Source: an uncultured Thermodesulfobacteriota bacterium (GTDB taxonomy: Bacteria; Desulfobacterota; GWC2-55-46; JADFVP01). From it: DNA of 64,000 nt. A program made the position numbers and the translations under genes. Shown piece by piece: positions 9,579 through 34,964 of the stretch (position 1 is the first letter of the stretch; each line of letters starts with the position of its first letter). The notes beneath the pieces are model-generated. The model was not told the origin of the DNA. It ran no database searches and saw only the letters and a program-made list of their open reading frames with translations. Location: assembly GCA_964472295.1 (NCBI GenBank), contig CAYYJQ010000002.1:32074-96073 (forward strand), given 5' to 3'.

Positions 9579-9654
9579 ACCCGTCCTCTATTGATATATG
9601 CAGACATGCACGCGCCGCGCTAAAAACCCCACCAACGCCCCCTTGGGCGCCCCC

Positions 9655-10836: not shown

Positions 10837-10849
10837 CTACCGCTTCCTC

Positions 10850-12520: not shown

Positions 12521-12531
12521 TAATACCCCTT

Positions 12532-14058: not shown

Positions 14059-14065
14059 CTCCACC

Positions 14066-15595
14066 TCACATGTACCCAAGGCTCTCAAGGCGCTTACGCA
14101 TCTTCGCGTAGTCCACGGGTTCTTCTTTACCGGAGGCCGCCTCTCCGCTCTCGTAACTCTCAACGTAACGTATGGGATGTTCCTTGAGGAAGTCTTTCGT
14201 AAATATGGCCTTGACGGGACTGCCGTCCATGTCCTTTGCAACGGGATAACCTGCAAGGGCAAGTACCGTTGGAGCAACGTCCATGATGGAGGCGTCCCCA
14301 AGGGAGGAGCCTCTCTTTACGCCTTTACCGTGGAAGAGAAAGATGCCGTTATCCTTGTGCACGCCAGTAACACGGAGCTTCCTTGTGGGGAAGAGATCAG
14401 CAAAACGGTAAGTCCCCAAATCAGCGACAGAGACCTCGGTATCGTCGTTGACATCGGTACGCCAGAGCTTCGTAGTGGTCTGTATGCTGAGATACCTCTC
14501 GTACTGGTCCACCTTGAAGATGCTCTCCTTTGTCCCGGCAAAGGCTATCTTCTCGATAACACCCTTGGCACGCGCCATCTCTTCTTTATCCCTCGAGGGA
14601 AAGGTCAGGTAGACCTTTATGCCGAAACGCGCCGGTATGACGCTGTTCTCAAGGCCGAGTATCTTGAGAAACCTCTCTATGTCGAGGATATGGGGCTGAA
14701 TCGCATCGGGCATGGCACCAAAGCCGTGGTCCGATACAAGCACCACGCTTGTATCATCGTCTATCATATCAAGAAAAGCGCCCACGGTCCTGTCGAGCTC
14801 CATATAGGCCTCGGGGATGACCCCGGCAAACTTGGCAGTAGCGGCGTCAGGGGCCTTGGAAAACTTCTCGGGCTCATAAGACTCCCAGTACCTGTGCGAT
14901 ATGGCGTCGCAGAGGTGGACATGGAAGGTTGCAAACTCAGGCCTATGCCTCTTGTAGAGGTTAATAAAGAGCTCGGTAAGCATCCGGTGGTAAATGGTGG
15001 CCTTTCGCCAGTACTTGTCCAAGGGAGTGTGGCTTCCGGCCTTCTCCCAGAGAAAATACTTTAACATGTAGAGAAATGTGCTATTGCTTATCCCATTCCT
15101 CTGCAGACCTTTGACGGCCTTCAATATGGCGAAGAGCTTACCGCTCCTTGAGGCCTTCTGGGTCAACTTCCTTCTTTCCCTCAGCACCACTTCCTGAAAG
15201 GAGCTGTACTCCTCGGGATAAGTCTCCGGCCCCATGGCGAATACGCTCGGTATAATAAAGCCATTTATGGGGTATGGAGGCCAGGTTACGAGGCTTCCCA
15301 CCACCCCCACCTTATTTCCCTGGTCATTAAAGATGTCCCAGAGCCGTTTCTGACGCACGGACTTGGCGGAGTCGCCGAAGAACTCCACTCCGTGTTTTTC
15401 GGAGCTCTTCCCCGTGAAGATGCTCGTCCATATCCTCGGTGAGATCATGGGCTGTTCGGAACGGAGCACCCCCCAGGAACCGCGGTCCATCAAGCCCTTG
15501 ATGTTGGGAAGGCGCCCCTTGTCAACAAGGGGCTTCATCACATCCCATGTACCGCCGTCAACTTCCACTATTAGTATCTTAGAGGCTGGCTTCAT
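14066..15595 (-). CDS. alkaline-phosphatase-superfamily NPP-family protein (paralog 3)
   Basis: ILIVEVDGGTWDV...MISPRIWTSIFTGKSSEKHGVEFF. C-terminal tail KRLESLGYM. Confidence 0.75.
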   Translation of the reverse strand: MKPASKILIVEVDGGTWDVMKPLVDKGRLPNIKGLMDRGSWGVLRSEQPMISPRIWTSIFTGKSSEKHGVEFFGDSAKSVRQKRLWDIFNDQGNKVGVVGSLVTWPPYPINGFIIPSVFAMGPETYPEEYSSFQEVVLRERRKLTQKASRSGKLFAILKAVKGLQRNGISNSTFLYMLKYFLWEKAGSHTPLDKYWRKATIYHRMLTELFINLYKRHRPEFATFHVHLCDAISHRYWESYEPEKFSKAPDAATAKFAGVIPEAYMELDRTVGAFLDMIDDDTSVVLVSDHGFGAMPDAIQPHILDIERFLKILGLENSVIPARFGIKVYLTFPSRDKEEMARAKGVIEKIAFAGTKESIFKVDQYERYLSIQTTTKLWRTDVNDDTEVSVADLGTYRFADLFPTRKLRVTGVHKDNGIFLFHGKGVKRGSSLGDASIMDVAPTVLALAGYPVAKDMDGSPVKAIFTKDFLKEHPIRYVESYESGEAASGKEEPVDYAKMRKRLESLGYM

Positions 15596-17072
15596 CTGTT
15601 ATTTCCCCTCTTGATTTATGTAACGTATACAGAGTCTGCGCCAATGCGATGACCATCCAGAGGTTCTTGTCAAGGAGGCTGTTCGAAGTACAGAGGAAAA
15701 AGCCGTAACCGCTGAGGGTCCCGAAGAGGGCGAGGGCGAGGTACCTGGTCTTGATGTCTCCCGAGGCCCGCATGACCATCCACATGCGCTTCATTGTTAG
15801 AAGATAGAGGGCGGCGAGGATAGATAAACCGAAAATGCCATACTCCGCGGCTATCTGCAGAGGCGTGTTATGTGTCTTCATGACGGTCTCCTGAAAGGCA
15901 TTGGCGGTATGGTGGGCCGCGTAGCGTCTATAGTTGGAGACAAAGCCATCGGGGCCGATGCCGAATATGGGGTTGTCGAAGAACATGGCCAGCCCGATGG
16001 GCACGTGCTCAAGGCGCATGCTGGCGGTCTGCTCTGAGCGCCCCTCTGAAGAATAGAGCCTCTCTGTATTCATCTCCGGCATTGCGACTACAACGACTAA
16101 GAGCAACATGAAAAACCCCGCCACAATGCCGCCGAATATGAGCCACTTCCTGCGGATCTCGATAAATGTCCAGATCACCATGAGCGAAATGGCAAGGCCG
16201 AGAAGCGCGCCTCTTGAGGCGGTCAGCAGGACGTTTATAGAGGCCACGGCAAAGACAATCCCTATGAGGCCTTTTTTGAGTCTGGAGTTCACGGTGAAAA
16301 ACTTGTAGACACAAAGACTCGCTATAACGACCATGTAGATGCCGTGGTAGGGGGCGTCTCCGATGAGGCCGTTGATCCTTCCCGCGTGCACGTTAAGGAG
16401 CACGTCACTTACGTCAGCCATGAAGATTGACCTGTTCCCAAGAAGGGCATAGGGAGACATATTTATCCTCATCTCAAGAAAACCTATAAGCCCGACTATC
16501 AGCCCGCCGGCCAATACCCAGGAAATCGTCTTCTCCATCTGCTCGCGCTTCTTCAAGGCAGTCTGCAGGTAGAAAAAGATAAGCCAGGAGTATATGAAGA
16601 GCTGTATCTGCTTTGCTGCCGCGGCTATACTCTGACTGTTCTTAATAGATATGAACATGAGGATGAGAAAAGCGCTAACAAGGAGATGCTCGGGCCTCAT
16701 GACGAACATCCCTATGAACTCCCGATCCTTCTTAAGGAGCATGACCATGGTCCACATTATAAAACCAGTCATCATTATTACAGTGGATACTGGAAAACCG
16801 CCTGAGGTTACGGGCAGGTTCAAGAACGCGGCGAATCCAAGGGTCAGGACAAAGATGCGGGCAAAGAGGAACTCATGGCGGAGGTAGAATACCGTGTATA
16901 ATACGGGCATTACGAGTGCTACCCCTATTAACGGATTATAACCTACAAGGGCCGCGTAAACAAAGATGAATGCCAGGAGCAGACCAAGAGCGAGCAGTCT
17001 GAAGGCCGTGGCCATCTGGTAACCTGGCTTTTGCATGTTAATCTCGTACATCACGTCTCCTCGGTCCGGCAT
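15579..17072 (-). CDS. polytopic membrane protein, O-antigen ligase/polymerase-like (Wzy_C-type)
   Basis: At least 10 predicted TM segments read by eye, with a large loop. It sits between the paralog genes and overlaps the upstream gene by 17 nt. The family assignment is from the overall pattern only. Confidence 0.45.
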   Translation of the reverse strand: MPDRGDVMYEINMQKPGYQMATAFRLLALGLLLAFIFVYAALVGYNPLIGVALVMPVLYTVFYLRHEFLFARIFVLTLGFAAFLNLPVTSGGFPVSTVIMMTGFIMWTMVMLLKKDREFIGMFVMRPEHLLVSAFLILMFISIKNSQSIAAAAKQIQLFIYSWLIFFYLQTALKKREQMEKTISWVLAGGLIVGLIGFLEMRINMSPYALLGNRSIFMADVSDVLLNVHAGRINGLIGDAPYHGIYMVVIASLCVYKFFTVNSRLKKGLIGIVFAVASINVLLTASRGALLGLAISLMVIWTFIEIRRKWLIFGGIVAGFFMLLLVVVVAMPEMNTERLYSSEGRSEQTASMRLEHVPIGLAMFFDNPIFGIGPDGFVSNYRRYAAHHTANAFQETVMKTHNTPLQIAAEYGIFGLSILAALYLLTMKRMWMVMRASGDIKTRYLALALFGTLSGYGFFLCTSNSLLDKNLWMVIALAQTLYTLHKSRGEITDEASL

Positions 17073-17110
17073 GGGACAGTCCTCTATCTTTCTCCCTCAC
17101 AGACCTTCCC

Positions 17111-18199
17111 CTATACGTAATCGCTGTCGCCAATAGATATGTCCCACATGGCCGCGTCTGTGACATCTACGGGAGGTGCGTCTTCACGCTCCCATCTCAC
17201 AATAAGATTGTGGTTGGTCTCCTTTACGGCAAAGCCCTTGTGACGCATGACTTCCCATGCATGGGAGTCCTCTCTCAACCAGGAGTTGACTGAATCAGCC
17301 TTCTCATCATAGCAGTAATTGACCGCGCGGTTTATCAAGACCCCCGTGACATCTATTTCCGGGTCAGAAAGCAGTTCCAGTATATAGCCACGCCTCATGT
17401 CTTCATTGAGTACGGCTACGACGGTAAAACCAACGACCACGTCGCCCTTCTCTATGGCAAAGACCCGATAATTGACAGAAGGACAGTCTACATAACGCCA
17501 GTTAAGATAAGCTGAGTCCTTGTAGAGCATAACCTTTACACGGGAAGAGACCGACTTGAGGAGCCTGTCGAAGCGCTCGTCGAACCTCTTTATCTCACTT
17601 ATGCGAAAACCCTCGGGCAGGGTTACGTCCGTGGAGTGCACCATGTGCATCAACGCTCCGGAGACCTTGCCGAGCACACGAGCAAGAGGCGCCGGCGCGG
17701 CCTTTTTTCTCAAAAACTCCCCGGGGTCGAGAACCCTCACAAGACGGCGCACAGGAAAAACGCTCTGGAACTTGAGTAGGCGCCTGCTTATCTTAAGCGT
17801 CTTATGAATGGAGTACCCGAAGACAATCTTCACCCCCGCCGGAGAAAGCAACTGTGTGGCGCAGTCGTGCAGTCTGAAGAAGGGCCCACCCTTCTGGAAC
17901 TCCGGAAGTATTACGATATCACAGGTCTGCGCACCGAGGACCTTCTGTCCATCTATCATCAGCCAGGTAGGAATAGCGCCTACCTGTCCCACAACTCTAC
18001 CGCTCTGTGCCTCTACGCCCACAGCCATAATGTGAGCGCCAGCGGGATTGGCATAGTACTTCCACCTCCAGAAGGCCATGTCCTTGTCTACGCCGAAGAC
18101 CGTCTTGTAAATCGCAGGCAGATACTTCAAGTCCCGCTCTTCGAGCTTGCGTATCTCAATATTCTTGAACCTTTCCCTGGCCATACTCCCTCTTATCAC
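17111..18199 (-). CDS. GNAT-fold / FemAB-like acyl(aminoacyl)transferase
   Basis: Roughly 360 aa. The architecture resembles the FemAB/BioF2-like acetyltransferase proteins common in EPS loci. No transmembrane segment. Confidence 0.45.
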   Translation of the reverse strand: MIRGSMARERFKNIEIRKLEERDLKYLPAIYKTVFGVDKDMAFWRWKYYANPAGAHIMAVGVEAQSGRVVGQVGAIPTWLMIDGQKVLGAQTCDIVILPEFQKGGPFFRLHDCATQLLSPAGVKIVFGYSIHKTLKISRRLLKFQSVFPVRRLVRVLDPGEFLRKKAAPAPLARVLGKVSGALMHMVHSTDVTLPEGFRISEIKRFDERFDRLLKSVSSRVKVMLYKDSAYLNWRYVDCPSVNYRVFAIEKGDVVVGFTVVAVLNEDMRRGYILELLSDPEIDVTGVLINRAVNYCYDEKADSVNSWLREDSHAWEVMRHKGFAVKETNHNLIVRWEREDAPPVDVTDAAMWDISIGDSDYV

Positions 18200-19869
18200 A
18201 GGTAACCCAGGCCCTTAAGGCGCTTTGCAACCTCTTCCTCGTCCTCCTCGGAGAGGAAACTGTCAGCCCCGGAATCAATGACAACACCCTCGTCGTCACT
18301 GAAAGCCGCCTTGTGTGATCTCAGGAATCTGCCCTTGATAATGCCATCAAGGGCCTGACCATCCATTCCCCTTGGAACAGGAACTCCAAGAAGTCTTAGA
18401 ATCGTGGGGGCAATGTCCATTATGTGCGCGCCCTCTACAGCGCCCTTCTTTTTCAAGTCTTTTCCGTAGCCGAGCAGAATCCCCTCCATCCGGTGCGTCC
18501 CCCAGCCGCTCGCATAGCTTGCCTTCTCAAAGACATGTCCCTTTAACTGCACGTCCGCCAGATAGGCCCCTCCCTTCAAGAAGAAGATTATATCAGGCGC
18601 ATCGTCAAGGTAGGGGCCGCTGTAGAGTTCCTCCTTCTTGTAGGTATGTGTAACAACGGCCTCGCCCGTGGCGGGGTCCCGCATCTTTTTGAGAGCGGCG
18701 ATGAGGTCGTCCCTGAACTCCTCGTATTCCTGGCCAGGGCTTATCACGCCATCTGGCTCACGTCCCTTGAGGTTAACATAAAAGCCCTGTTCAGTATTGG
18801 AGGCGGAGTAGGCCTTTGTTTTCGACCAGTTAATAACCTGAAGAAAGTCATATGCGTGTATCCTGCCGCCCTTGCCCCTGCTCGGAAGGATTCGTTTGCG
18901 CAGATTATGTTTGTCTATCCTTCTTAAGTACCTCTTCACCTTGAGCACGCTCTGGCGGAAGGCCATATGAGAGAGTTGTTTGCTCTGATTGAGCTCCAGG
19001 TATCCTTGCTGGTGCAGCCACTGGTTGACGTATACCTTCTTTTCAAGAGGACCGAAGCCGTGGTCTGATACCATGAGGATATTGGCCACATCCCCGTACC
19101 TCTCCATGACCTTGCCCATGAATGCGTCGACCATCTGGTAGTACTCTTTTATCTTCTTAACAAAGCCCTTCTCGCGCGTGGTGAGCGAGTCCGGATCCAC
19201 GGGGTGGATGTACTTCCAGAGATAGTGCTGTATGCGGTCGGAACCGATAAATACCGAGATGAAAAGATCCCATTGCTTGTTTTCCATAAGGTACTCGAAG
19301 GCCCGGCATCTCTGCTCCGTGCACTCGATAATCTCATCGAGAAACTTCTCCACACCACGCTCGCCGTAGTACTGCCACCATACATCCATGGTGTATCCGC
19401 CGATCTTGTTCTTCACCTCCTCGAAGAGACCCTCGGGGTATGAGATGTTCGTGGCGTTCCCGGGCGTTAGAAGACCGGTAATTACGAAACCGTCAACCTC
19501 TGGCGGCGGGTACGTTAGCGGCATGTTGACCATGCCCACCTTCATCCCCGCGTCGTTTACGAGTTTCAGTATGGTAGCGCTCCTGATATGCTTGTAGTTG
19601 ACAGGGTGGCGGCCGACCTCGTTCTTGCCGGCCTTTACAAAGTCATAGATGCCGTGCTTTCCGGGGTTCTTCCCTGTCATGAAGGAGACCCACGACGGAC
19701 CGGTAACAGGGGGAATAGATGAACGGAGGTCGCCACGCACCCCTTCTGCGCACATCTTCTGAAGGTTGGGGAGCTCACCCCTCTTCATGTATGGGTCGAG
19801 GGCGTCGAAGGTGGCCCCATCGAGACCTATCACTATAACCTTTTCATTTATCTTCTTTTTCATTACCAA
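18196..19869 (-). CDS. alkaline-phosphatase-superfamily NPP-family protein (paralog 4)
   Basis: VIVIGLDGATFDALDPY...SIPPVTGPSWVSFMTGKNPGKHGIYDF. C-terminal tail KRLKGLGYL. Confidence 0.75.
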   Translation of the reverse strand: MVMKKKINEKVIVIGLDGATFDALDPYMKRGELPNLQKMCAEGVRGDLRSSIPPVTGPSWVSFMTGKNPGKHGIYDFVKAGKNEVGRHPVNYKHIRSATILKLVNDAGMKVGMVNMPLTYPPPEVDGFVITGLLTPGNATNISYPEGLFEEVKNKIGGYTMDVWWQYYGERGVEKFLDEIIECTEQRCRAFEYLMENKQWDLFISVFIGSDRIQHYLWKYIHPVDPDSLTTREKGFVKKIKEYYQMVDAFMGKVMERYGDVANILMVSDHGFGPLEKKVYVNQWLHQQGYLELNQSKQLSHMAFRQSVLKVKRYLRRIDKHNLRKRILPSRGKGGRIHAYDFLQVINWSKTKAYSASNTEQGFYVNLKGREPDGVISPGQEYEEFRDDLIAALKKMRDPATGEAVVTHTYKKEELYSGPYLDDAPDIIFFLKGGAYLADVQLKGHVFEKASYASGWGTHRMEGILLGYGKDLKKKGAVEGAHIMDIAPTILRLLGVPVPRGMDGQALDGIIKGRFLRSHKAAFSDDEGVVIDSGADSFLSEEDEEEVAKRLKGLGYL

Positions 19870-19884
19870 CCTGACTCCAACCTC

Positions 19885-20667
19885 TTAGATCCTCGCGAAA
19901 AACCTGTACCAAAAGAGGTATAGGATAAATTTTGTATTACCGATAAGGTATCTTCTCCAGAGGCGCCTCGGCTCCACGGCAAGTCTGCAGAGCCACTCGA
20001 AGCCATTGTCAAGGAGCCACGCCGGCCCCCTTCTCGTCATCTCGCTGATAAAATCAAATAGGCCGCCAACGCCCCAAACAACCTCCACATTCAGGCTCAC
20101 GGCGTACCTGTCTATCCACTTCTCCTGCAGAGGGGCGCCGAAACCCACAAGGAGTATATCGGGCTTTACCCTGTTAATCTCCTTTATGAGTTCACTACAG
20201 TCATTGTGATCAAAGTACCCATGGTGCGTGCCCACGACCTTGAGGCCAGGGGCCTGTTCCTCAAGTCTCCTTGCCGCCTCCTCTGCCACGCCCTCACCGG
20301 CGCCAAGAAGATACACGCTTATGCCCTGCTCCGCATACTCCTTGCAGAAGTCCGCGATAAAGTCCGCCCCCGTCATCCTGCCGGGCAGGCGCACCCCCCA
20401 GAGCCTCGCCCCGAGTACCACACCCACACCGTCTGCGTACACGAGGTCCGCGCTGTTAAGAATCCTCCTGTAGCCCCTGTCCTTGAGGGAAAGGAGTGAG
20501 CAGTCGGCGTTAAGATACATAATCTTTCGGACCTTGCCGTCGCCGGCATACTTTAAAGTCTTCCTGAGAAGGCCCTCCCTGTCAAGAATATCGGTCTTTA
20601 CGCCGAAAACCTCAACCGTATCCCTGGGCTCGCTATCCGCCTCTGACCTGCCACTCACTTCACCCAC
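19885..20667 (-). CDS. WecB/TagA/CpsF-family glycosyltransferase (GT26)
   Basis: LNADCSLLSLKD...YADGVGVV...VYLLGAGEGVAEEAARRL...GYFDHNDCSELIKEINRVKPDILLVGFGAPLQEKW, a characteristic GT26 signature. Confidence 0.8.
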   Translation of the reverse strand: MGEVSGRSEADSEPRDTVEVFGVKTDILDREGLLRKTLKYAGDGKVRKIMYLNADCSLLSLKDRGYRRILNSADLVYADGVGVVLGARLWGVRLPGRMTGADFIADFCKEYAEQGISVYLLGAGEGVAEEAARRLEEQAPGLKVVGTHHGYFDHNDCSELIKEINRVKPDILLVGFGAPLQEKWIDRYAVSLNVEVVWGVGGLFDFISEMTRRGPAWLLDNGFEWLCRLAVEPRRLWRRYLIGNTKFILYLFWYRFFARI

Positions 20668-22211
20668 CCCAGTTTTCGTCCCACGATAGATTCCACTCTT
20701 CTATACTCATCAAGCTTCAGGCAACGGCATACGACAAGAAAAAAGACCCAAGACACAAAGGAGATCAGGGCAATCTCGATTAACTGCACCGGCGTATTTT
20801 GAAGATTCAGGTATCTGGCAAGGATCCCCTTCATGAGCATAATGCTGACCCCCATGAAAAGCGTGGCCACACCTATCTTGAGGATTGAACCAAAGATATG
20901 GGAGATCTCTATGCCGCCAATTCCAGCATTGAGTTTCATGTAAAGCAATAGGGTCGTAAAGACCGAGACGCCCAATGTGGCCATTGGTATGCCGATAATA
21001 CCGAATATATTCATGAGGAGAAAATCCAGCAGGGCATTGAGTATGAGTGCCAGAAAAGTCACCTTGAAGGGGGTCCATGTGTCCCCTGAGGCAAAGAATA
21101 TCCCCGAGAGAATAACGCTTGTGGCGCTGAAGAGAATGGCAAGGCTATAGAAGATGAAGACACCTGAGGCGAGCACGGCCGCGTCCCCGGTAAAGTTGCC
21201 CCTCTGGTAGAGGAGCCGGATTATGGTCTCGCTGAAGTACACGAAAATTAGCACCAGCGGGGCAAGGCCGAAGAGCACGAACCTGATGGCATAGGGGACA
21301 AATTTACGAAGATAATCCATATTACCCTCGGCGACTTCCTTGGAAAGGTGGGGCATAAGGGTCTTGCCGAAGGTGGCAACAGCCAATGAGACGGGCAGTA
21401 AAGTAAGCCTGTAAGTATAGCCCAACACCGAGACCGAACCAGCCCCAAGCATTGAGGCAAATAAACGGTCTATCCCTATTATGCCCCTGTTTACGCCTAT
21501 ACCGCCGGCCCTTGGCCCCATGAGCCTTGCGACATTAATGAACTCTCTTATCCCGGAAAACCTGAACCTCGGAAGGACCCCCGCCTTTAAGAGGGCAAAA
21601 AAGAGGACGATGAGCTGAAGCGCCACCCCTGAGAGAAAACCTGCTACCACGGCCTTTATGCCCCAACGCCCTATGCCCCCGAAGAGGATGAAGGAGATGG
21701 CCCCGAGGTCGGGTAACTGCGCGGCCAGGGCCGGAACTCCAAACCTCTGGAGCGTATAGGAGAGCGCGGCCAGGAAGGCGGCAAGTCCCCCGATAAAGAC
21801 CACGGGGCTCAAGAGTCGGAGCAGGTCCACGGCAAGGAGGTAGGCCTCGGTGGAGAAGCCGGGTGCCAGCAGGGCGACGAGGTAGGGAGCAACAAGATAA
21901 AGTACGACCGCGAGCACGAGCAGGGAGAGAAAGAACCACGTAAAGATATGGTTCGCCGCCTCAACGGCCCTCTCTCGGCCCTCCTTGACATGCTTGGACA
22001 CAAGGTAGGGAACGAGGGAATAAGTGAGAACAGTATCGCCCATGCCCCATATGATGAGCGTTATCCAGACCGATATCATATAGGCGTCCGTAGTGGCGCT
22101 GACGCCGTACTCACGGGCTATTAATATGACCTGCAAGAGACCAAAGACCCCAAGCCCCAACCGGGACAGGAGGTTTATCAATGCGGATCTGCCAAGCCTC
22201 TGTTGTCTCAA
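20655..22211 (-). CDS. MOP-superfamily flippase (MurJ/MviN-like or Wzx-like)
   Basis: Roughly 14 TM helices. MurJ-like N-terminus LLSRLGLGVFGLLQVILIAREYGVSATTDAYMIS. Confidence 0.65.
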   Translation of the reverse strand: MRQQRLGRSALINLLSRLGLGVFGLLQVILIAREYGVSATTDAYMISVWITLIIWGMGDTVLTYSLVPYLVSKHVKEGRERAVEAANHIFTWFFLSLLVLAVVLYLVAPYLVALLAPGFSTEAYLLAVDLLRLLSPVVFIGGLAAFLAALSYTLQRFGVPALAAQLPDLGAISFILFGGIGRWGIKAVVAGFLSGVALQLIVLFFALLKAGVLPRFRFSGIREFINVARLMGPRAGGIGVNRGIIGIDRLFASMLGAGSVSVLGYTYRLTLLPVSLAVATFGKTLMPHLSKEVAEGNMDYLRKFVPYAIRFVLFGLAPLVLIFVYFSETIIRLLYQRGNFTGDAAVLASGVFIFYSLAILFSATSVILSGIFFASGDTWTPFKVTFLALILNALLDFLLMNIFGIIGIPMATLGVSVFTTLLLYMKLNAGIGGIEISHIFGSILKIGVATLFMGVSIMLMKGILARYLNLQNTPVQLIEIALISFVSWVFFLVVCRCLKLDEYRRVESIVGRKLGWVK

Positions 22212-22243
22212 CTCAATGCCCTCTGAAGTTCCTTAACGTCTTT

Positions 22244-23284
22244 TTACTTCTTGTAAAAGCCCAGCTCGGCTGCCCGCTTGTACACCTGTTTACGCTCCTT
22301 CAATATCCTCTCGTAATGCAGGGCATTGGAGGAATCGCACATCCTGCAAGTGGGAAGCCCCGAGAGGTCACGGTCGAGGTGCTTCCTTCTCAGCTCGTTA
22401 AAGGCTTCACTGTGCCAGAGGTCCTCTATACTCGAGTCGTTGAAGTTACCTACAGAGAGGGCGCCGTCTATATCTGCACAACATACGGTGGCGGTCCCGT
22501 CCCAGAATATGAGGAGGCGGTCGAAGAGCTGGTGGCAAGGCCTTACCTTCTCCCTTTCTCCGCGTTCCACGTGCGTAAGGTCCTCGACGTTTCCGTACCT
22601 CCCAACTGGCAGGACGTTTATCTTATCCGCATGAGCGGCCCATAGCTCAAAGACACCGTAGATCTCTTCCTCTGTGTCCTTGCTGAGTATGGTATTAATA
22701 ACCACTCGGGGTTTGTCCCTGCCCATATCGTTACGCATCTTTATCAAGGTCATTATATTATCCCTGACCTGCTCATATTTAGCGTTTACACGGATATTCT
22801 CGTAGGTTTCCCTGCTAGAGCCATCGAAGCTGAAAGTTATGGAGTCAAGCCCTGAATTGATTAGCCCTCTGGCCTTCTCCTCTGTCAAGAGCGTCCCGTT
22901 GCTTGTGAAGTAGACCCATGGCACACCCCTGTCCTTGGCATAGCGGATCATCTCCATGAGCCTGGGGTGCAACATGGACTCACCAAAGCGGTTGAGCTTA
23001 AGAACTGGAACCTTTATCTCCACCGCGTTGTCCACGATCCTCTTGAAGAGCTCCATGCTCATGAATCCGCTCTTACGCGTCATGCCGTCACGATCGCACA
23101 TAACACAGTTGAGGTTACAGACATCGGTAAGCTCGACGTAGACCGTAGGAGGAACTTTGGGAAGGATATGGAATTTTTTCTTTAAGGCCTTGCACGCGGA
23201 GTACAGAGGTTTTGCAAACCTTAGTGCTTTGACTTTTTTTAATTTTTGTATATCGGCAACCATCTCATTAGGCCTCTGATGCAA
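22244..23284 (-). CDS. radical SAM enzyme with C-terminal SPASM/twitch-type auxiliary-cluster domain
   Basis: CNLNCVMC (CX3CX2C) cluster motif. C-terminal Cys-rich region CCADIDG...GLPTCRMC. Confidence 0.8.
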   Translation of the reverse strand: MHQRPNEMVADIQKLKKVKALRFAKPLYSACKALKKKFHILPKVPPTVYVELTDVCNLNCVMCDRDGMTRKSGFMSMELFKRIVDNAVEIKVPVLKLNRFGESMLHPRLMEMIRYAKDRGVPWVYFTSNGTLLTEEKARGLINSGLDSITFSFDGSSRETYENIRVNAKYEQVRDNIMTLIKMRNDMGRDKPRVVINTILSKDTEEEIYGVFELWAAHADKINVLPVGRYGNVEDLTHVERGEREKVRPCHQLFDRLLIFWDGTATVCCADIDGALSVGNFNDSSIEDLWHSEAFNELRRKHLDRDLSGLPTCRMCDSSNALHYERILKERKQVYKRAAELGFYKK

Positions 23285-23313
23285 ACCTGAAAAGGGCGTA
23301 CATCTGTAAGAAG

Positions 23314-25350
23314 TCAGTCCAGAAAACTCTGGAGTATCTCAGGTACATACTCAGCCCGCTTGGTCAAGACGATGCCACTTACTGTACCGCCAGCTTCCCT
23401 TACCTTCTCTACGGCCCCCAAAAGCGAACGTCTGGAGGTCTGATCAGCCTCTACCGTGAGAATGACGCCATCGGCGGCGCGAGCGAGGAGAAGGGCATCT
23501 CTGAACCCCGTGGTGCACGGCGTATCGATAAGGACATATTCGTAATTCTCTCTGGCGTACTTGAGAAGCTCAGTCATCTTATCAGATGCGAGCACCTCGA
23601 AAGGGTCTTTTTTGTTCCTGAGAGGGTCCCCGGCGAATATCACCGCCAGACTGCAGGCACTGACAACAAGACCATCTGCCCCGAGGTCACTGCTGTAGTA
23701 ATCCATGAGCCCCCTTGAGGGCTTGACATCTAAAATCCCTTCGAGCGAGGGGGCCCTCATGTCAGCCTCAACGACAAGAACCTTCTTGCCGCGTTTGGCA
23801 AGGGCCCTTGCGAGAAAGACAGCAGTCGTGCTCTTGCCCTCACCGCGTCCGGGGCTCGAAATGAGATAGATACTGCTCGGCCTCTCCATGTTCTTTAACC
23901 GTATGCTGTCGGCAAGACGCTCGTAAGCGGAGAGTGACCTTGCGAGCACCTTCTCAGTAAGCATCCCCAAAAGCTTGTTGCCACCGGCGTGAGAGCCAGA
24001 GCCTATCATAGAAGCGAACACCTTTTTCCTGTTATAAAAGGGTATCATCGGGATAGCTCCAAGCGCAGGTATCGGCACCTCTGACTCAATATCTTTTAAG
24101 GACGTGAAGGACGTGCTCCAGTACTCAATCAAGAGGACGAAGGCAATGGCGGAGAACAGACTCGCCATAAGGGCCAGCGGTATAGTGATTGCCATCTTTG
24201 GCCAGTCAGGCTTTACATAGGAGTATACCTTCGCGCTGTCCAGGACCTTAATCTCAACATCCCCGACATCCGAGTTCATCAGGGCCTCAATCTCAAGAAT
24301 CTTCCCCTTGAGGGTAGTATAAAGATCCTGATGAACCTTCATGTCCTGGCTGAGCCTATCATACTCCACCTCCTCAAGAGGCAATGCCTTCAAGCGCTCC
24401 TTTATCTTCGGAATAATGGTATTCTTATACTCCTCTATCTTAGCGCCAAGGGCCCTTACCTCTGGATGGTTAACTGACTTTTCTATCCTTAATGACGCCA
24501 GCTGACCTTCCATGTCCTTTAGCTCATTCCCGTACTTATCCAGTCTGTTGAGTAATATCGTGGCCTCCTGATCATAGGAGAGTATGCCTGATTTGATCTT
24601 GTACTTACGGAACCTCTCCTGGGAGTCTTTGAGATTCTTGTCAGCCACGGCCAGCTGAACCTTTGTCGCCTCGAGCATGGAACGTAGCGGCAGTTTGCTG
24701 AGTTCCTTGTTCTTCTCCATAGCCAGCTCTACAAGCTTATTGCTGAGCGCCGTCGCTATCTCGGGAGACTCGCCCCATACCCCGACGTCTATGACTGTGG
24801 TATCCTCTTCAAGTTCTATATCCTCGAGGTCATCGAGCATCTCATCAACTGCCGAGGCAAGGTAGTTATCAGGCTTGTCCTTAAGTACGCCGATGTACTG
24901 CAAAAAGGCAAGGGGTTTGCCGATAAGAAAATCGTAGATATACCCGCGGATTATCTCCTTGACACTCTGCGGATCATTTGTCCTCTGCTCCCAGAGTTTG
25001 TCCCTCTTGAATGACTTGACAAGCTTCTCTGCAAGTTCGCGGCTTGTGAGCATCTGTATTATGTCGTTTGCCGGGTTGACGCCCGAGACCTGTCCGGCTG
25101 GCGTGGTAATGCCCTCGAACATTGAGAGTTGTTGCTTACTGCTGTACTGCACCCGTATCTTCGCCGTGGCCTTCCATGATGTGGTGACAAGGTAGGTCCC
25201 GAAGAGTATCCCCAGGAAGGTAACCCCGCAGACGAGAACGGCAAAATACTTCCTCTTGAACAGTGCATAGAGAAAGCCGTAAAGTATATCTCCCTGCGTC
25301 GATTCACTCTGCACTCTGTTTCCACTTGATGACTGGTTGGCCGGGCTCAT
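23314..25350 (-). CDS. polysaccharide co-polymerase / BY-kinase-like protein (Wzc/EpsG-like)
   Basis: N-terminal Wzz-like region with a TM helix and a second TM helix near residue 430. P-loop SSPGRGEGKSTTAVFLARALAKRGKKVLVVEADMR and Walker-B-like LIDTP. No C-terminal Tyr cluster. Confidence 0.75.
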   Translation of the reverse strand: MSPANQSSSGNRVQSESTQGDILYGFLYALFKRKYFAVLVCGVTFLGILFGTYLVTTSWKATAKIRVQYSSKQQLSMFEGITTPAGQVSGVNPANDIIQMLTSRELAEKLVKSFKRDKLWEQRTNDPQSVKEIIRGYIYDFLIGKPLAFLQYIGVLKDKPDNYLASAVDEMLDDLEDIELEEDTTVIDVGVWGESPEIATALSNKLVELAMEKNKELSKLPLRSMLEATKVQLAVADKNLKDSQERFRKYKIKSGILSYDQEATILLNRLDKYGNELKDMEGQLASLRIEKSVNHPEVRALGAKIEEYKNTIIPKIKERLKALPLEEVEYDRLSQDMKVHQDLYTTLKGKILEIEALMNSDVGDVEIKVLDSAKVYSYVKPDWPKMAITIPLALMASLFSAIAFVLLIEYWSTSFTSLKDIESEVPIPALGAIPMIPFYNRKKVFASMIGSGSHAGGNKLLGMLTEKVLARSLSAYERLADSIRLKNMERPSSIYLISSPGRGEGKSTTAVFLARALAKRGKKVLVVEADMRAPSLEGILDVKPSRGLMDYYSSDLGADGLVVSACSLAVIFAGDPLRNKKDPFEVLASDKMTELLKYARENYEYVLIDTPCTTGFRDALLLARAADGVILTVEADQTSRRSLLGAVEKVREAGGTVSGIVLTKRAEYVPEILQSFLD

Positions 25351-25409
25351 AATATATGCCTCATTTAACTACTCTCCTACAAGGTTTTGGATGTGCTATC
25401 TTGTAATGG

Positions 25410-25529
25410 TCAGAACTTTACGATCTTTAAGACCAGAAAAGAGAAGAAGGCCACCAGTCCTGTCCACGACGCAAAGAAAGCCGCTATTATAAAGAACCTC
25501 AGGTATCGCTGAAACTTGTTATCGTCCAT
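25410..25529 (-). CDS. candidate small single-TM protein (39 aa)
   Basis: Below the ORF-track length cutoff. Minus-strand ATG at 25529..25527 gives MDDNKFQRYLRFFIIAAFFASWTGLVAFFSFLVLKIVKF and ends at a stop at 25412..25410. AGGAAAAGG lies 5' of the start. It sits between the Wza-like and Wzc-like genes. Confidence 0.25.
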   Translation of the reverse strand: MDDNKFQRYLRFFIIAAFFASWTGLVAFFSFLVLKIVKF

Positions 25530-25589
25530 AGCCTTTTCCTATCACCCGCCCTGACGGGCGCCTTTATCTTATTTACAGCTCTACGTTAA

Positions 25590-26903
25590 TTAACGAAACC
25601 CTAATGACGTTGAAGAGCCCCTTCCCACGCCGGTCTCTATGTGCTGCCCAACCCAGTATCCGGTCTCGAGGTTGAAGAGGGGTTTGAGGATTTTGTCCAG
25701 ATGGTCGAAGAAGCGGTCCACGTTTGAGATAAAGGTTCTCGGGACATATATAATATCGCCCTTTCCAACAACGGGGTTCTGGGAGATATCGCCCTTCGCG
25801 TAGAGCCTCTTGAGATCCAGAACCTGCACGTCCGCAGACTTAGTGGCGCGCCCGCCCTTTATAAGTACGATGCTCCGTTGCTTTGCATCCAAGGTCAGCC
25901 CGCCGGCCATGGCGATGGCGTCAACTACACCAGCCTGCCCGTCAGCAAGGAATACCCCCGGGTGTTGAACCTCGCCGAAGACAAATACCTTGTGCCCGCC
26001 CAGACCGCTCACCTCTACGCCTACCTGCGGGTCGGCGATCCTCTTCGGGGCGCTAATCCTCATAATGTCGAGCGAGACCTGCGGGTCAACTACGATCTTG
26101 GGCATGCCCATTGAAACAAGGTCCACCCCCACCTGCGGGTCCTCTATGAACCCTGAGAGTCCCTCGGTTATCTCCTTCCTTAAATCGCCAAGGCTCTTGC
26201 CTTCGGCGCGTATTTCGCCGACCAGAGGGATGAAGATAACCCCGTCAGGAGGAATGAACATCTTACGGCTGAGTTCTTCCTGATGGTAGACAGTAATTGA
26301 TATTTCGTCCCCTGGCGCAAGGTATGATTTGCGGTACTTGGAAAGCCCGTCTACGATGACCTGCCTTATCTCACGCAAGGACCTACCGTCAGTGTTTATA
26401 TCGCCGACAAGGGGAAAGAATATATGCCCGTCCGAGGGCACGACAATCTCCCTGCTGAATTCATCATGACCGAAGATGGCCACGGAGATCTTGTCCCCAG
26501 GTGACAAGAACTGTTCCTTGCGCTCCGAGAGCCCTTTGGTTATAACACCCCTTAAATCCTTCAGGCTCATTCCTTTCGTATCAATCTCGCCCACTATGGG
26601 GTAAAAAAACTTTCCGTCAGCGGGGATCCTGATTTTACGTGTAAGGTCTTCATGCCCGTAGACAACGATTGAGATTTCGTCTCCGGGAGAAAGCATAAAC
26701 TTGCTGACCCCAAGTTTCTCTGTAAGAGCCCCTCCTGTAGGGGCACCCTCTGCACCGCCTTCCTGGACAGTACCCGGCGGCACGGGAGCGCTATCGCCAT
26801 GCCCCCTGAGTCCCGCGCACCCCTCTATCGCAGAAAGTAACGCGAGCATGAGCAGGAGGGCAAAGATTTTTCCAGTTTTATTCGCCAATTTTTCCTTCAT
26901 CAA
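25590..26903 (-). CDS. outer-membrane polysaccharide export lipoprotein (Wza/OPX family) with three tandem Poly_export-type repeats
   Basis: Signal peptide with Cys, ALLLMLALLSAIEGC. Three consecutive roughly 55-aa repeats LSPGDEISIVVYGHEDLTRKIRIPADGKFFYPIVGEIDTKGMSLKDLRGVITKGL, LSPGDKISVAIFGHDEFSREIVVPSDGHIFFPLVGDINTDGRSLREIRQVIVDGL and LAPGDEISITVYHQEELSRKMFIPPDGVIFIPLVGEIRAEGKSLGDLRKEITEGL. Confidence 0.75.
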   Translation of the reverse strand: MMKEKLANKTGKIFALLLMLALLSAIEGCAGLRGHGDSAPVPPGTVQEGGAEGAPTGGALTEKLGVSKFMLSPGDEISIVVYGHEDLTRKIRIPADGKFFYPIVGEIDTKGMSLKDLRGVITKGLSERKEQFLSPGDKISVAIFGHDEFSREIVVPSDGHIFFPLVGDINTDGRSLREIRQVIVDGLSKYRKSYLAPGDEISITVYHQEELSRKMFIPPDGVIFIPLVGEIRAEGKSLGDLRKEITEGLSGFIEDPQVGVDLVSMGMPKIVVDPQVSLDIMRISAPKRIADPQVGVEVSGLGGHKVFVFGEVQHPGVFLADGQAGVVDAIAMAGGLTLDAKQRSIVLIKGGRATKSADVQVLDLKRLYAKGDISQNPVVGKGDIIYVPRTFISNVDRFFDHLDKILKPLFNLETGYWVGQHIETGVGRGSSTSLGFR

Positions 26904-27374
26904 TAAGCACCAGTTTTTTAGAGACCTCTCGGATGAAACTTAAAATATCCTTTATTCTTTATCCCAGCCCATTTATATTAATTTCTCACACACCTCACAT
27001 CGTTACACCCTGGCAACCCGGCCATGAAAGACTATCTCCCCACATACATACCAGCCCCACTTATGCCCTCTCGTTCCAGGCGCTCAGGCACCCAGCCACA
27101 AAAACCGTCCCTACCTCCCCCGCCCCCCTGCCCTCTTTAACCACAAAGGTGCAAAGCAGGGTCTTGCCGATATTACCAGCACCCCTCATGTACCAGGACC
27201 TCACCCCGTCCCGCCCAATCCCAAGCGGTACTGGGCCGACCAGGATCATATCACAGATGAAGACGTTGAATAAGCGCGTAAAGCGCTACGATAAGCCCAA
27301 ATCACCTGTCACCAGACTTCAGAGCCCCCGTGAGAAGGAAGCTCTTTAGAACACCATTTGCTGTACCCCTATTC

Positions 27375-29129
27375 TTACCTGGCTCCTATCTTCTTTAGAA
27401 GCACATTAAAGGTCCTCAAGATTATCTTCAAGTCCCCTATAAGCGACTGTTCCTTCACATAGGCGACATCATACCTTATCCAGTCATGGAAGTATGGACT
27501 GCCCCTTCCCTCCACCTGCCAGAGCCCTGTAATCCCGGGCTTCACCCTGAGCCTTATATCCCTCCAGCTCGGGCTGAACTTCATCTCGTCCATAACAAGG
27601 GGCCTTGGCCCCACAAGGCTCATCTCGCCCTTGATAACGTTAATGAGCTGCGGAATCTCATCAAGACTCGTCTTTCTGAGGAAAGCGCCCACCCGTGTAA
27701 TCCTCGGGTCCCTGTCCATCTTGAATACAGGGCCGTCCACGTTCTTGCTCTCCATGTATTTTTTCTGCAGTTTGTGTGCGTCCTTTATCATTGTCCTGAA
27801 CTTCAACATGCCAAACTCGCGCCCGTCCTTGCCGCAACGCCTCTGGCGGTATATGACAGAGCCCGGAGAATCGAACTTGATGACAAGGGCTATGACCAGC
27901 ATGAGTGGGGAGAGCGCCATGAGCGCAACGGCGGAGAGAACGACATCCATGGCCCTCTTTGTAATGAGATAGGCCTGCGACTTCACCGCCTCCATCTTTG
28001 CCATGGAAACGCTGCTTATGCCCTCGGCACTGTCCCTTGAAGGGGCAAGGTTCATGTCCCCATGTTTTATATCACCCACAAGTGCCTTGTTGTTATAGGA
28101 ACGGCCTTCTTTTATATCCGAATTGGAGGCGGCCACGCAGTAAAAGAGGCTCGCCCGGCTCATTACCTTCGTGTCCTGCCAGAGTATGCTCTCCCGGACA
28201 ATGGCGCCCTCGTCCACCACGCACCCGCGGCCGAGTATGACCGGCCCAACGATCTGAGCGTGGTCCTTTACAACGCAGTTGTCGCCGATGACGGCAGGCC
28301 CGATCAGATAAGACCTCGGTGATATTGCCACGTTCTTTCCAACCCAGACATTGGCGCCAACTTCCTTGAGCCCGCTTGGCACATGGCCCTTGAGGATGCG
28401 GGACCTGTGAAGGTTGTAATAATCATCAATACTCTCAATGGTCCTTATAAAGCCCTCGAGCCTGTGAACATATACAGGCATTGAGGCCTTTTTCATGGCA
28501 GGGAACAACTGCTCCTTTATATCAAAATACCCTTCGCTGTCCACAAGAGAGAGCACCTTGGAATTCACCATGAAAATGCCCTCGGACTTTACGAGGGACC
28601 GCCTGTTCCTTGAGGCATGGATAATGGAGATGTCATCGACAAGGCCGTCATCGCGGGCCTTGATGGTCTCGAGTGTGGCGTCCCGCCTGCACGAAGCCCC
28701 GATGGTAAGGGCCGCCCCCTTGTTCATGTGAAATCTTATCAACTCGTCAACAGCGCTGTACTCGGCATAAGTGTTGCATTGCATAACAAGGACATCGTCG
28801 TCCTCGAAAAAGTCCCTGAGGTCGCGAAGGACCCCTGCCGTGCCCCGCGGCCGATCTTCCTCGTAGTACTCTATCTTTACGGGTGGCCTCCTGCCTCCAA
28901 AGTGCTCCGACGGGTCTACAGGCCGGGCGCCCTTGCGTCCAACTACCACTACGCTGGAGATGCCGTTGTCAGAGAGACACTGGATGGTCTGTTCCAGTAT
29001 GGGCCTGTTAAAGACCGGCAGGGAACATATTGGGGCGTGCTTGATGAGGGGCCTGAGGAGAGCGTTCTCTCCATCGGCAAGGATAACCGCCCTCTTTACC
29101 CTGGCTTTGATATGCGCGTGGTTAATCAT
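27375..29129 (-). CDS. fusion of nucleotidyltransferase-like domain, left-handed beta-helix domain, and polyprenyl-phosphate sugar-phosphate transferase (initiating PGT, WbaP/PglC-type)
   Basis: N-terminus RAVILADGENALLRPL has the NTP_transferase fold with the glycine-rich motif degenerate. Hexapeptide repeats VGKNVAISPRSYLIGPAVIGDNCVV. TM helix, then the bacterial sugar-transferase core SVIYRQRRCGKDGREFGMLKFRTM...DEIPQLINVIKGEMSLVGPRP...PGITGLWQV. Confidence 0.75.
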   Translation of the reverse strand: MINHAHIKARVKRAVILADGENALLRPLIKHAPICSLPVFNRPILEQTIQCLSDNGISSVVVVGRKGARPVDPSEHFGGRRPPVKIEYYEEDRPRGTAGVLRDLRDFFEDDDVLVMQCNTYAEYSAVDELIRFHMNKGAALTIGASCRRDATLETIKARDDGLVDDISIIHASRNRRSLVKSEGIFMVNSKVLSLVDSEGYFDIKEQLFPAMKKASMPVYVHRLEGFIRTIESIDDYYNLHRSRILKGHVPSGLKEVGANVWVGKNVAISPRSYLIGPAVIGDNCVVKDHAQIVGPVILGRGCVVDEGAIVRESILWQDTKVMSRASLFYCVAASNSDIKEGRSYNNKALVGDIKHGDMNLAPSRDSAEGISSVSMAKMEAVKSQAYLITKRAMDVVLSAVALMALSPLMLVIALVIKFDSPGSVIYRQRRCGKDGREFGMLKFRTMIKDAHKLQKKYMESKNVDGPVFKMDRDPRITRVGAFLRKTSLDEIPQLINVIKGEMSLVGPRPLVMDEMKFSPSWRDIRLRVKPGITGLWQVEGRGSPYFHDWIRYDVAYVKEQSLIGDLKIILRTFNVLLKKIGAR

Positions 29130-34100: not shown

Positions 34101-34158
34101 GAAGATGGCGAAAAAGGAAATATCCTCCATCTTGAGACAAAAGAAGGAACAGAGATAA
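31129..34158 (+). CDS. GT-C-fold membrane glycosyltransferase (ArnT/PMT-like, polyprenyl-P-sugar dependent) with periplasmic DUF and C-terminal TPR repeats
   Basis: Roughly 12 N-terminal TM helices. The central soluble domain FEVFLYDKSEGRLVRLFSRYLDPKNNLKERRWF...IYFVTSGGPRL is shared with the protein at 39648..43298. The C-terminal 250 aa are TPR repeats. Confidence 0.65.
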   Translation: MKSPERPTYPHATGLAVFILAIAAYLPISQVDLSMLDEGALLYVAERLTKGDVLYRDIVTGIMPGVYYLQALFFSVLGYSVMAGRVLACATLALNALLVYLLATRFLSKKTSIALGLFFISTALPSYWMAGYSQVSLTFVLTGLLFFLRYLGSRGLVDLLISGAAAGMALVFKQNYGVFITAGLGMTLMARLVLKREWRPVLVFSAAFLTPLIVMVLYFYSTGALPNMTEYTFFSLFKKAAGAYYKPYPLLSRTDPLFFNHELYNFIPFRNLAIWSLKEGYAREAWVRAAVVIIYALAPLIIASSLVYGAIALVRRRLKWEEGVLMLVSFLLFLGVFPRSDIHHLIFIAPPLMVTGAMLAGRLPVGGKALMISRTCALVIMGLFSALCLVSSYMPLLHPAPGREKVALDIPRAGGIRVEKREARVIRAVTNHIRKHTRPDEPILVVPTGAMYYFLAGRRSVVPYPLIMPGAMDEAVVIKAMEKASLRYIIYSDMSFDEETLSRHMPLIHDYIQKNYSIDPSYPLRETGGNVYVLKRGRPGEEITPLDSEAGEALVHTRGRHLPVLLDLAGGLEKARSGVILGSGRGVPLFRENQVTRNAWLLKDAILQEPGRGWSKVYTAFSLHVPRSSGLRFSIGQSPVVWSPWFGDGALFEVFLYDKSEGRLVRLFSRYLDPKNNLKERRWFTYLAGLKKYGGRDLIIYFVTSGGPRLNLTLGEMNRWRQIDMAGWGAPAIVGIGKVEGSNGAMVSGKAQKVLLPPMAAREMARFDDISFILEEKKKYPGDYDVLLTLGRIYERAGRKDKAIREYRAALKSYARGSEARNLLSRYYIRKGQHKKAEGLLIEGLGLDRTDAKLNMTMADLYRRRGKYEMAVMSYGQVLRARPGDEWALLGLARTYLAEKKPGKAMSEANKALDAHPGSTAALIMIGDAYRLKKEWKRAEKTYRKALRTNPDSPALKLKLALSLKAMGRTEEALKAYGEALTARGASDALKKMAKKEISSILRQKKEQR

Positions 34159-34961: not shown

Positions 34962-34964
34962 ACA

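Follow-up and report, generated by a model that had tools for sequence, protein, structure and literature searches.

A twitch-domain radical SAM enzyme as a candidate sugar-tailoring factor in an exopolysaccharide operon of an uncultured Thermodesulfobacteriota bacterium

BtrN, the 2-deoxy-scyllo-inosamine (DOIA) dehydrogenase of butirosin biosynthesis (PDB 4M7S/4M7T), is the founding member of the twitch radical S-adenosylmethionine (SAM) enzymes and takes a carbohydrate-like alcohol, not a peptide, as its substrate; its structure, attributed to Goldman et al. in 2013, reportedly has four cysteines ligating a single auxiliary [4Fe-4S] cluster, the arrangement that defined the “twitch” domain. 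BlsE (7VOB), DesII (8HZV), AbmM (8WM2), and SpeY (7WZV) abstract a hydrogen atom from nucleotide- or nucleoside-linked sugars, and they belong to natural-product pathways, none of them to a polysaccharide assembly locus. To our knowledge, sugar-acting radical SAM enzymes are known almost only from antibiotic pathways. SPASM and twitch domains carry one or two clusters (PMC8326336). Here, we describe a radical SAM gene in a 64,000-nucleotide (nt) stretch (the window, throughout) of contig CAYYJQ010000002.1 from an uncultured Thermodesulfobacteriota bacterium. The reading that we favor, at a probability of roughly 58%, is that its product is a twitch radical SAM enzyme that serves as an optional exopolysaccharide-tailoring factor in anaerobic Thermodesulfobacteriota-like bacteria and performs a radical oxidation or epimerization of a cytoplasmic sugar intermediate. 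If so, what is new is an uncharacterized carbohydrate-acting twitch enzyme in the unstudied Wzx/Wzy exopolysaccharide setting of anaerobes.

The open reading frame (ORF) at 22244..23284 (minus strand) is real and encodes, on translation, a radical SAM protein with a cysteine-rich C-terminal domain. An identical 339-amino-acid (aa) protein occurs on six metagenome contigs (three places listed) and orthologues were found at 45-81% identity, which together rule out a chance ORF. Of the two candidate start codons, ATG 23263 is the likelier and TTG 23284 the less likely: AGAGG lies 9 nt upstream of the ATG, which is also the start in public gene calls of the identical protein and the point at which aligned orthologues begin. 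The gene has the following features.

22244..23263, minus strand: radical SAM/twitch enzyme gene, 339 aa from ATG 23263 (alternative start TTG 23284)
23096..23119, minus strand: CX3CX2C motif CNLNCVMC, residues 49-56, for the radical SAM [4Fe-4S] cluster (from the translation; C49/C53/C56 invariant in 26 homologues)
22337..22537, minus strand: putative twitch (truncated SPASM) domain core, residues 243-309, C243-x12-G-x4-C261(C262)-x44-C306-x2-C309 (from the translation and alignment)
23159..23263, minus strand: putative basic amphipathic helix, N-terminal 35 residues (from charge and hydrophobic moment in 17 orthologues, and a model)

Across an alignment of 26 homologues (27-81% identity, 17 of them closer orthologues), the invariant cysteines are C49, C53, and C56 of the SAM cluster, together with C243, C261, C306, and C309, the last of which is also the final cysteine of the protein; C262 is invariant only within the 17 closer orthologues. 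Given this invariant set and the lack of any cysteine after C309, the protein is without the CX2CX5CX3C segment that a genuine SPASM domain would have. Specifically, of the full motif CX9-15GX4C...CX2CX5CX3C...C, only CX12GX4C...CX2C is present. The four C-terminal cysteines align one-to-one, and with the same spacing (C-x17-C-x44-C-x2-C), with C169, C187, C232, and C235 of BtrN, which we take to be the four ligands of its single auxiliary [4Fe-4S] cluster. A twitch-domain model (NF033640) matches residues 250-323. Thus far, the CX3CX2C motif and the Pfam match to PF04055 (Radical_SAM, 1e-17) place the protein by sequence in the radical SAM superfamily, and it is predicted to be of the twitch type, with a radical SAM [4Fe-4S] cluster plus a single auxiliary [4Fe-4S] cluster whose ligands all come from four cysteines, as in BtrN. 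A first-pass annotation of the window, made from the letters and ORF translations, had called the protein a radical SAM/SPASM enzyme; the first half of that label stands, whereas the second, in spite of a Pfam match to SPASM (PF13186, 2.6e-13), gives way to the single-cluster twitch domain.

The N-terminal helix is a further mark of this protein. Over ~35 residues it has a net charge of +7 to +12 and a high hydrophobic moment in all 17 orthologues, and it is absent from BtrN, the alignment to which begins at query residue 40. In an AlphaFold2 model of the enzyme (pLDDT 90.2), the helix at residues 2-30 is of low confidence. Its role may be to hold the enzyme at the membrane surface, which would be a hint of a lipid-linked substrate, not proof of one.

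Searching the family profile against all PDB sequences identified BtrN as the best solved relative (6.9e-25, 91 bits), ahead of BlsE (2.7e-16), GDGT-MAS (1.1e-14), CteB (4.9e-12), AbmM (6e-12), MoaA (7e-12), PqqE (1.9e-11), DesII (6e-11), and SkfB (3.9e-10), with the anaerobic sulfatase-maturating enzyme anSMEcpe (anSME; PDB 4K36) marginal at 2e-4 (23.7 bits). For most of the top solved relatives by sequence (BtrN, BlsE, AbmM, and DesII), the substrates are sugars or cyclitols. The matches to BlsE, DesII, AbmM, and SpeY (2.7e-16 to 1.5e-07) cover mainly the radical SAM core, and the chemistries of these four vary (decarboxylation, deamination, sulfur insertion, and dehydrogenation), each possible, none proven, for the window enzyme. 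Relative to BtrN, the window enzyme is only about 20% identical, adds the 35-residue basic N-terminal helix, a C-terminal basic helix, and the near-invariant Cys262, and is encoded in a Wzx/Wzy exopolysaccharide operon without an aminotransferase partner, whereas BtrN belongs to an aminoglycoside cluster. To judge by that identity and the missing aminotransferase, it is not a BtrN orthologue, that is, not a DOIA dehydrogenase. No curated NCBIfam model reached its cutoff; the best matches, TIGR04317 (tungsten-cofactor oxidoreductase radical SAM maturase, 140 bits against 380) and TIGR04311 (radical SAM/SPASM putative metalloenzyme maturase, 130 against 400), scored best over the N-terminal half only (residues about 45-220), and the 25 best NCBIfam matches include no model for anSME. 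Fold comparison alone does not separate the enzyme from anSME or from maturases of peptides that are made on the ribosome and modified after translation (RiPPs).

The genomic setting is a minus-strand operon that runs from a phosphoglycosyl transferase fusion at 29129 to at least a GT4-family glycosyltransferase at 8415, with mostly short gaps and uniform GC content, overall and at third codon positions (GC3). Its order is phosphoglycosyl transferase fusion, Poly_export, a 39-aa ORF, Wzc, radical SAM, MurJ, a WecG-family glycosyltransferase, the alkaline-phosphatase (AP)-superfamily protein AP555, GNAT, Wzy, AP509, AP508, AP556, GT2, and GT4. The parts that bear most directly on the enzyme are these.

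8415..29129, minus strand: whole Wzx/Wzy-type exopolysaccharide operon (from Pfam, gaps, and composition)
23314..25350, minus strand: Wzc-like polysaccharide co-polymerase with a P-loop kinase domain, directly upstream of the radical SAM gene (Wzz, GNVR, AAA_31)
20655..22211, minus strand: MurJ/MviN-type flippase, directly downstream of the radical SAM gene (PF03023, 3.9e-68; TIGR01695, 242.9 bits)
18196..19863, minus strand: AP555, cytoplasmic, nucleophile Thr (PPVTGPSW), of all genes the one in tightest linkage with the radical SAM gene (PF01663, 1.2e-43)
17111..18184, minus strand: tandem-GNAT, acyl-CoA N-acyltransferase-like protein, 357 aa, the conserved block partner of AP555

The placement between flippase and co-polymerase, already proposed in the first pass, was borne out by these domain matches (co-polymerase NCBIfam scores: TIGR01007, 106 bits; TIGR01005, 121.6 bits). 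The flippase exceeds the cutoff of the MurJ equivalog model TIGR01695 (235.55), and these scores identify it as MurJ/MviN-type, excluding a Wzx of the Polysacc_synt type; automatic annotation would probably label it a peptidoglycan flippase. A recent insertion of the radical SAM gene was considered and rejected, as its GC and GC3 match those of its neighbors and no promoter-like or terminator-like site was found flanking it.

Beyond this location, our results revealed that the radical SAM gene is an accessory (optional), putative tailoring gene of a conserved operon. This follows from an otherwise orthologous cluster (L090 in our numbering of compared loci; GCA_040960175.1) with the order phosphoglycosyl transferase, Poly_export, a 37-aa ORF, Wzc, MurJ, WecG, AP544, GNAT, Wzy, AP504, AP557, GT2, GT4, and FG-GAP, which is without the radical SAM gene and has a Wzc-MurJ gap of only 139 nt. 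Its proteins are 46-72% identical to those of the window, as close as those of L092, the closest full orthologous cluster with a twitch radical SAM gene. The GNAT protein of L090 is also found on a 2.53-Mb contig from which, within the sensitivity of a word-indexed search, a radical SAM orthologue seems absent. Clusters with and without the gene differ by no dedicated partner, such as an aminotransferase or reductase.

Among loci that do have the gene, those of orthologues at 52-63% identity are polysaccharide loci, from metagenome-assembled genomes (MAGs) of Thermodesulfobacteriota, Desulfobacteraceae, and Deltaproteobacteria. An AP555 orthologue is no more than two genes away from the radical SAM gene in nine of 11 distinct contexts (the window, L004, L007, L008, L009, L010, L013, L092, and L098, the last being the one informative new context from a metagenome scan) and directly adjoins it in five (L007, L008, L009, L013, and L098). 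A tandem-GNAT gene of ~355 aa is part of the block in seven of the nine AP555-linked loci, usually with a MurJ-type flippase; L007 has the GNAT, with the contig ending before any flippase, and L098 is too short to tell. The MurJ-type flippase occurs in the same block in six other loci (L004, L008, L010, L013, L090, and L092). Gene order within the block is shuffled: radical SAM-MurJ-(WecG)-AP555-GNAT, radical SAM-AP555-GNAT, MurJ-AP555-radical SAM-GNAT, AP555-radical SAM-GNAT, and AP555-GNAT-MurJ-radical SAM. This shuffling argues for a functional linkage. In L011, an AP556-like gene lies about 1 kb downstream and no GNAT was detected, so that an AP-superfamily gene is close by in 10 of 12 contexts when L011 is included. 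The exceptions are the 50%-identity group L005/L097 and L012/L177, a Gallionella contig, where the radical SAM gene stands at the contig end, followed by an insertion sequence (IS) element and a GT4 gene.

Linkage to an AP-superfamily protein is also a feature of anSME, and by that analogy the enzyme could instead be a maturase of the AP-superfamily enzymes of the locus (AP555 or its paralogues), acting at or near the nucleophile or in their C-terminal tail. The window offers ample candidates, with six AP-superfamily proteins in all: AP555 and the following five.

14066-15595, minus strand: AP509, nucleophile segment ISPRIW
12532-14058, minus strand: AP508, nucleophile segment ISPRLW
10850-12520, minus strand: AP556, nucleophile segment HPITPQ
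1109-3115: secreted AP+BNR protein, nucleophile segment TYTTPG
39648-43298, plus strand: GT4-sulfatase fusion, 1216 aa (PF00884, 7.6e-37), nucleophile segment TIPSH (Thr)

All five cytoplasmic AP proteins (18196-19863, 14066-15595, 12532-14058, 10850-12520, and 39648-43298), from two glycan clusters, share a tail, ...L(K/E)xLGY(L/M)-stop, after an acidic stretch, which is kept in orthologues elsewhere. Further, the best NCBIfam matches, however far below cutoff and confined to the N-terminal half, are to putative metalloenzyme maturases. Several findings count against a maturase. First, the SPASM domain of anSME is complete and binds two auxiliary clusters, compared with the one predicted here, and its marginal similarity score places the window enzyme, as far as sequence goes, outside the anSME clade. 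Second, the target motif is missing. A six-frame search of the 64 kb for the regular expression C/S-x-P/A-x-R...(T/S)G gave nine matches, none in a sulfatase or plausible coding ORF of that kind: eight fall in reading frames of 19-85 codons, and the ninth, SEPERFEYSG, belongs to an acidic stretch within the GT2 at 46114-47214, a protein without any AP or sulfatase domain. The first-pass annotation had described a single sulfatase-like domain lacking C/S-x-P-x-R; the lack of the motif holds for every such protein, and the count was wrong, as there are six. Its argument that this is no anSME with a Cys- or Ser-type sulfatase nearby is upheld by the same results, with anSME at 2e-4 against about 7e-25 for BtrN. 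Third, the AP proteins linked to the enzyme use Thr or Ser nucleophiles, which stay the same in loci without the radical SAM gene. All seven full-length AP555 orthologues in the alignment have Thr as nucleophile, and the AP508/509 type has Ser (ISPRLW); PPVTGPSW...TGK, SDHGFGPL, GTHR, and the LKGLGYL terminus are common to AP555 orthologues whether or not the radical SAM gene accompanies them, and the AP508-type serine motif is unchanged in L090. Co-variation of the AP active sites with the radical SAM gene was looked for in these comparisons, and none was seen. The shared motifs weaken the idea of an obligatory maturase and fit optional tailoring, as does, for the first of these, the L090-type cluster on the 2.53-Mb contig on which the word-indexed search found no radical SAM match.

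The linkage to AP555 and the tandem-GNAT, which the first pass had missed, together with the weak likeness to putative metalloenzyme-maturase families, is nonetheless why we retain a protein maturase as an alternative, albeit an unlikely one. Its most specific form, in which the enzyme is a dedicated modifier of Thr- or Ser-nucleophile AP enzymes and installs a modification other than formylglycine, we consider very unlikely; if true, it would amount to a second, unrecognized maturation system for the AP superfamily, inside polysaccharide assembly loci. PDB sequence searches returned no close solved relative of AP555 or of the GNAT protein.

Two further observations concern the AP proteins themselves. 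A mechanically called ORF at 12532-14301 (minus strand, 589 aa) runs 236 nt into the upstream gene; the AP508 gene most likely starts at ATG 14058 (508 aa, MRGLRSK...), as in public gene calls. The GT4-sulfatase fusion lies in a glycan cluster of the ABC-transporter type (Wzm/Wzt, 34158-36218) and, from its domains, looks like a combined glycosyl- and phospho-substituent transferase.

The GNAT protein raises an alternative of its own, in which the enzyme acts on what the GNAT makes, for example by modifying an N-acyl substituent on an amino sugar or by using an acyl-CoA-derived radical in Elp3-like C-C chemistry. The GNAT gene belongs to the block in eight loci and directly follows the radical SAM gene in L008, L009, and L013, and the protein has a tandem acyl-CoA-type fold close to N-myristoyltransferase and Eis. 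The persistence of both GNAT and AP555 in L090, without the radical SAM gene, leads us to regard this as quite unlikely.

A peptide substrate has still less to recommend it, and we rate a RiPP or peptide maturase, with its precursor encoded elsewhere or in a small ORF two genes upstream, as extremely unlikely. The Pfam SPASM match and a conserved 39-aa ORF are what could be said for it. With the ATG start, the gene is separated by 50 nt from the stop codon of Wzc and by 32 nt from the start of MurJ, and neither gap wholly contains an ORF of at least 20 aa; the gaps of 30 nt or less stated in the first pass hold for the upstream side only with the TTG start (29 nt), and its observation that no small ORF flanks the gene stands. 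The protein has no Pfam match to an RRE (RiPP recognition element)/PqqD domain, and the 35-residue helix alone precedes its core. An RRE is usual in radical SAM RiPP maturases (PMC8326336). The conserved ORF is as follows.

25410-25529, minus strand: 39-aa ORF MDDNKFQRYLRFFIIAAFFASWTGLVAFFSFLVLKIVKF, between Poly_export and Wzc, two genes upstream of the radical SAM gene; hydrophobic, Cys-free, transmembrane helix

L007 (50% identity) and L004 have matching ORFs in the corresponding place. In L008-L013, where the radical SAM gene is retained, tblastn gave no match to it, and L090, which is without that gene, has a called ORF of 37 aa between the same two genes (position compared, not sequence). 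We reject the 39-aa ORF as a precursor on these grounds and as a Cys-free transmembrane helix; its product is probably a minor membrane component of the export apparatus. A 62-aa ORF at 27061-27249 was likewise rejected, having no conserved counterpart. The enzyme thus has neither the RRE nor the adjacent precursor gene of a radical SAM RiPP maturase, and the earlier claim that no precursor peptide is encoded here is supported.

Comparison with the wider family points in the same direction. An exhaustive hidden Markov model (HMM) search of 1.84 billion cluster representatives recovered 5,098 at E<=1e-30, which overturned our idea, from 74 matches in a word-indexed search, that the family is rare; only the tight orthologue group is small, with just four close loci in 185,579 GTDB species genomes when the 17-sequence alignment was used as the query. 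In a motif survey of the 149 best representatives (150 listed, P0002 excluded), 135 show nothing beyond C-x9-15-G-x4-C and a later CxxC (with the 44-residue gap in 101 of these), and none has the full SPASM motif (CX2CX5CX3C). The family signature is CCxD. None of 10 sampled members reaches an NCBIfam cutoff, and their best matches are again TIGR04317 and TIGR04311. In fusion proteins, the partner of the radical SAM/twitch unit is a Kdo transferase (PF04413), an FkbM methyltransferase, a class I methyltransferase, or the C-terminal domain of a sugar C-methyltransferase (PF08484). A 35%-identical relative adjoins NeuB, two CMP-sugar synthetases, a Kdo transferase, GT2/GT4 enzymes, and PMT_2; a 36%-identical one adjoins a B12-binding radical SAM gene and four genes for PMT_2 (lipid-sugar transferase); and, at 32% identity, another is interspersed in alternation with B12 radical SAM genes. 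A distant branch (21-26% identity; L029, L033, L038, L040, L047, L070, L082, and L085) adjoins strong homologues (225-314 bits) of the window GT4 at 37269-38672. The contexts of the distant relatives are glycan or glycolipid, not peptide, and together with the fusions they count against a RiPP maturase. The same distant-branch neighbors are also homologous to the N-terminus of the window GT4-sulfatase fusion, and the branch is hosted by Beggiatoa-like, Thiotrichaceae, Persephonella, Sulfurimonas, and Cloacimonadota MAGs. In L094 and L095, distant twitch relatives are directly paired with B12 radical SAM genes.

It is here that a lipid substrate comes into view, which could be the polyprenyl carrier or else a lipid of the membrane or of the polymer's anchor. 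GDGT-MAS, the third-best solved relative, modifies lipids; the 32-36% identical relatives pair with B12-binding radical SAM enzymes and PMT_2 lipid-sugar transferases; and the basic amphipathic N-terminal helix suggests a location at the membrane surface. L092 also has a B12-binding radical SAM gene (14327-15790, 487 aa), between an AP paralogue and Wzy. However, the GDGT-MAS match spans the radical SAM core only (query 41-229), the twitch domain matches BtrN, the fusion partners in the wider family are glycosyl- and sugar-type methyl-transferases, and by Pfam the operon is without lipid-synthesis genes. We find this alternative improbable.

We return to the reading of the enzyme as an optional sugar-tailoring factor. 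The suggestion of a sugar-modifying radical enzyme acting on a nucleotide sugar or lipid-linked intermediate came from the first-pass annotation, and it gains support from the BtrN-type cysteines, the sugar-acting relatives, the polysaccharide loci, and the fusions; the substrate, a lipid-linked carbohydrate, and the type of chemistry are what we infer. Its need for SAM and a low-potential reductant confines the enzyme to the cytoplasm and to the steps ahead of repeat-unit export by the MurJ-type flippase. By location, the substrate could be sought among nucleotide sugars, the undecaprenyl-diphosphate-linked repeat unit, and cytoplasmic proteins. In the mechanism that we propose, the reduced radical SAM cluster would cleave SAM to a 5'-deoxyadenosyl radical, which would attack a sugar carbon in a cytoplasmic precursor and remove a hydrogen atom from it. 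That precursor could be a nucleotide sugar, though the undecaprenyl-diphosphate-linked repeat unit, at the inner membrane face and about to be flipped, is the likelier candidate. Two routes could follow. First, the substrate radical could give an electron to the auxiliary cluster, yielding a keto sugar in a BtrN-like dehydrogenation. Second, in radical epimerases such as NeoN a free cysteine returns a hydrogen atom, and here the near-invariant free Cys262, beside the ligand C261, might return the hydrogen on the opposite face to give an epimer. As the cluster without the radical SAM gene differs by no aminotransferase or reductase, we lean slightly toward a self-contained reaction, either epimerization or terminal oxidation.

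Several points weigh against this reading. The tightest linkage is to a protein-coding partner, AP555, a pattern also expected of an enzyme-maturase pair. The operon has no aminotransferase or ketoreductase partner to account for the fate of a keto-sugar product. The similarity to GDGT-MAS and the pairing of distant relatives with B12 radical SAM enzymes leave room for a lipid substrate, and attachment to the membrane is something that we only infer, from the N-terminal helix. One group of orthologues at 50% identity (L005/L097) lies outside any recognizable polysaccharide locus, with no glycan genes nearby. Finally, there is no characterized orthologue and no NCBIfam model at cutoff, and a full-text literature search found no paper describing the family or the AP555/GNAT/radical SAM block.

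Should the enzyme edit the lipid-linked repeat unit before flipping, it would represent an oxygen-independent route to exopolysaccharide diversification in anaerobes, as well as a useful biocatalyst for carbohydrate C-H chemistry. The orthologous operons with and without the gene constitute a natural experiment that could pinpoint the sugar modification. More broadly, a large and uniformly twitch-type family that has about 5,100 cluster representatives but lacks a curated name seems to be associated with the assembly of cell-surface glycans, and “radical SAM/SPASM” genes of this type are not to be read as RiPP or sulfatase maturases.

The remaining observations concern neighboring genes of the operon and its relatives. 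Upstream of, and divergent from, the operon in L007 (2641-6067) is a CysD/CysN-like pair (PAPS_reduct and GTP_EFTU) with an AP-superfamily gene, which by its domains hints at sulfate activation and possibly a sulfated polymer there; no CysD/CysN-like sulfate-activation genes were found in the window. The Poly_export (Wza-like) protein at 25590-26903 (minus strand) has three Poly_export Pfam matches, and two overlapping parts of it match one stretch of the shorter L004 orthologue, suggesting an internal domain duplication. The initiating phosphoglycosyl transferase (Bac_transf; 27375-29129, minus strand) is fused at its N-terminus to a sugar-1-phosphate nucleotidyltransferase and left-handed beta-helix domain, and the same fusion is present in L008, L090, and L092.

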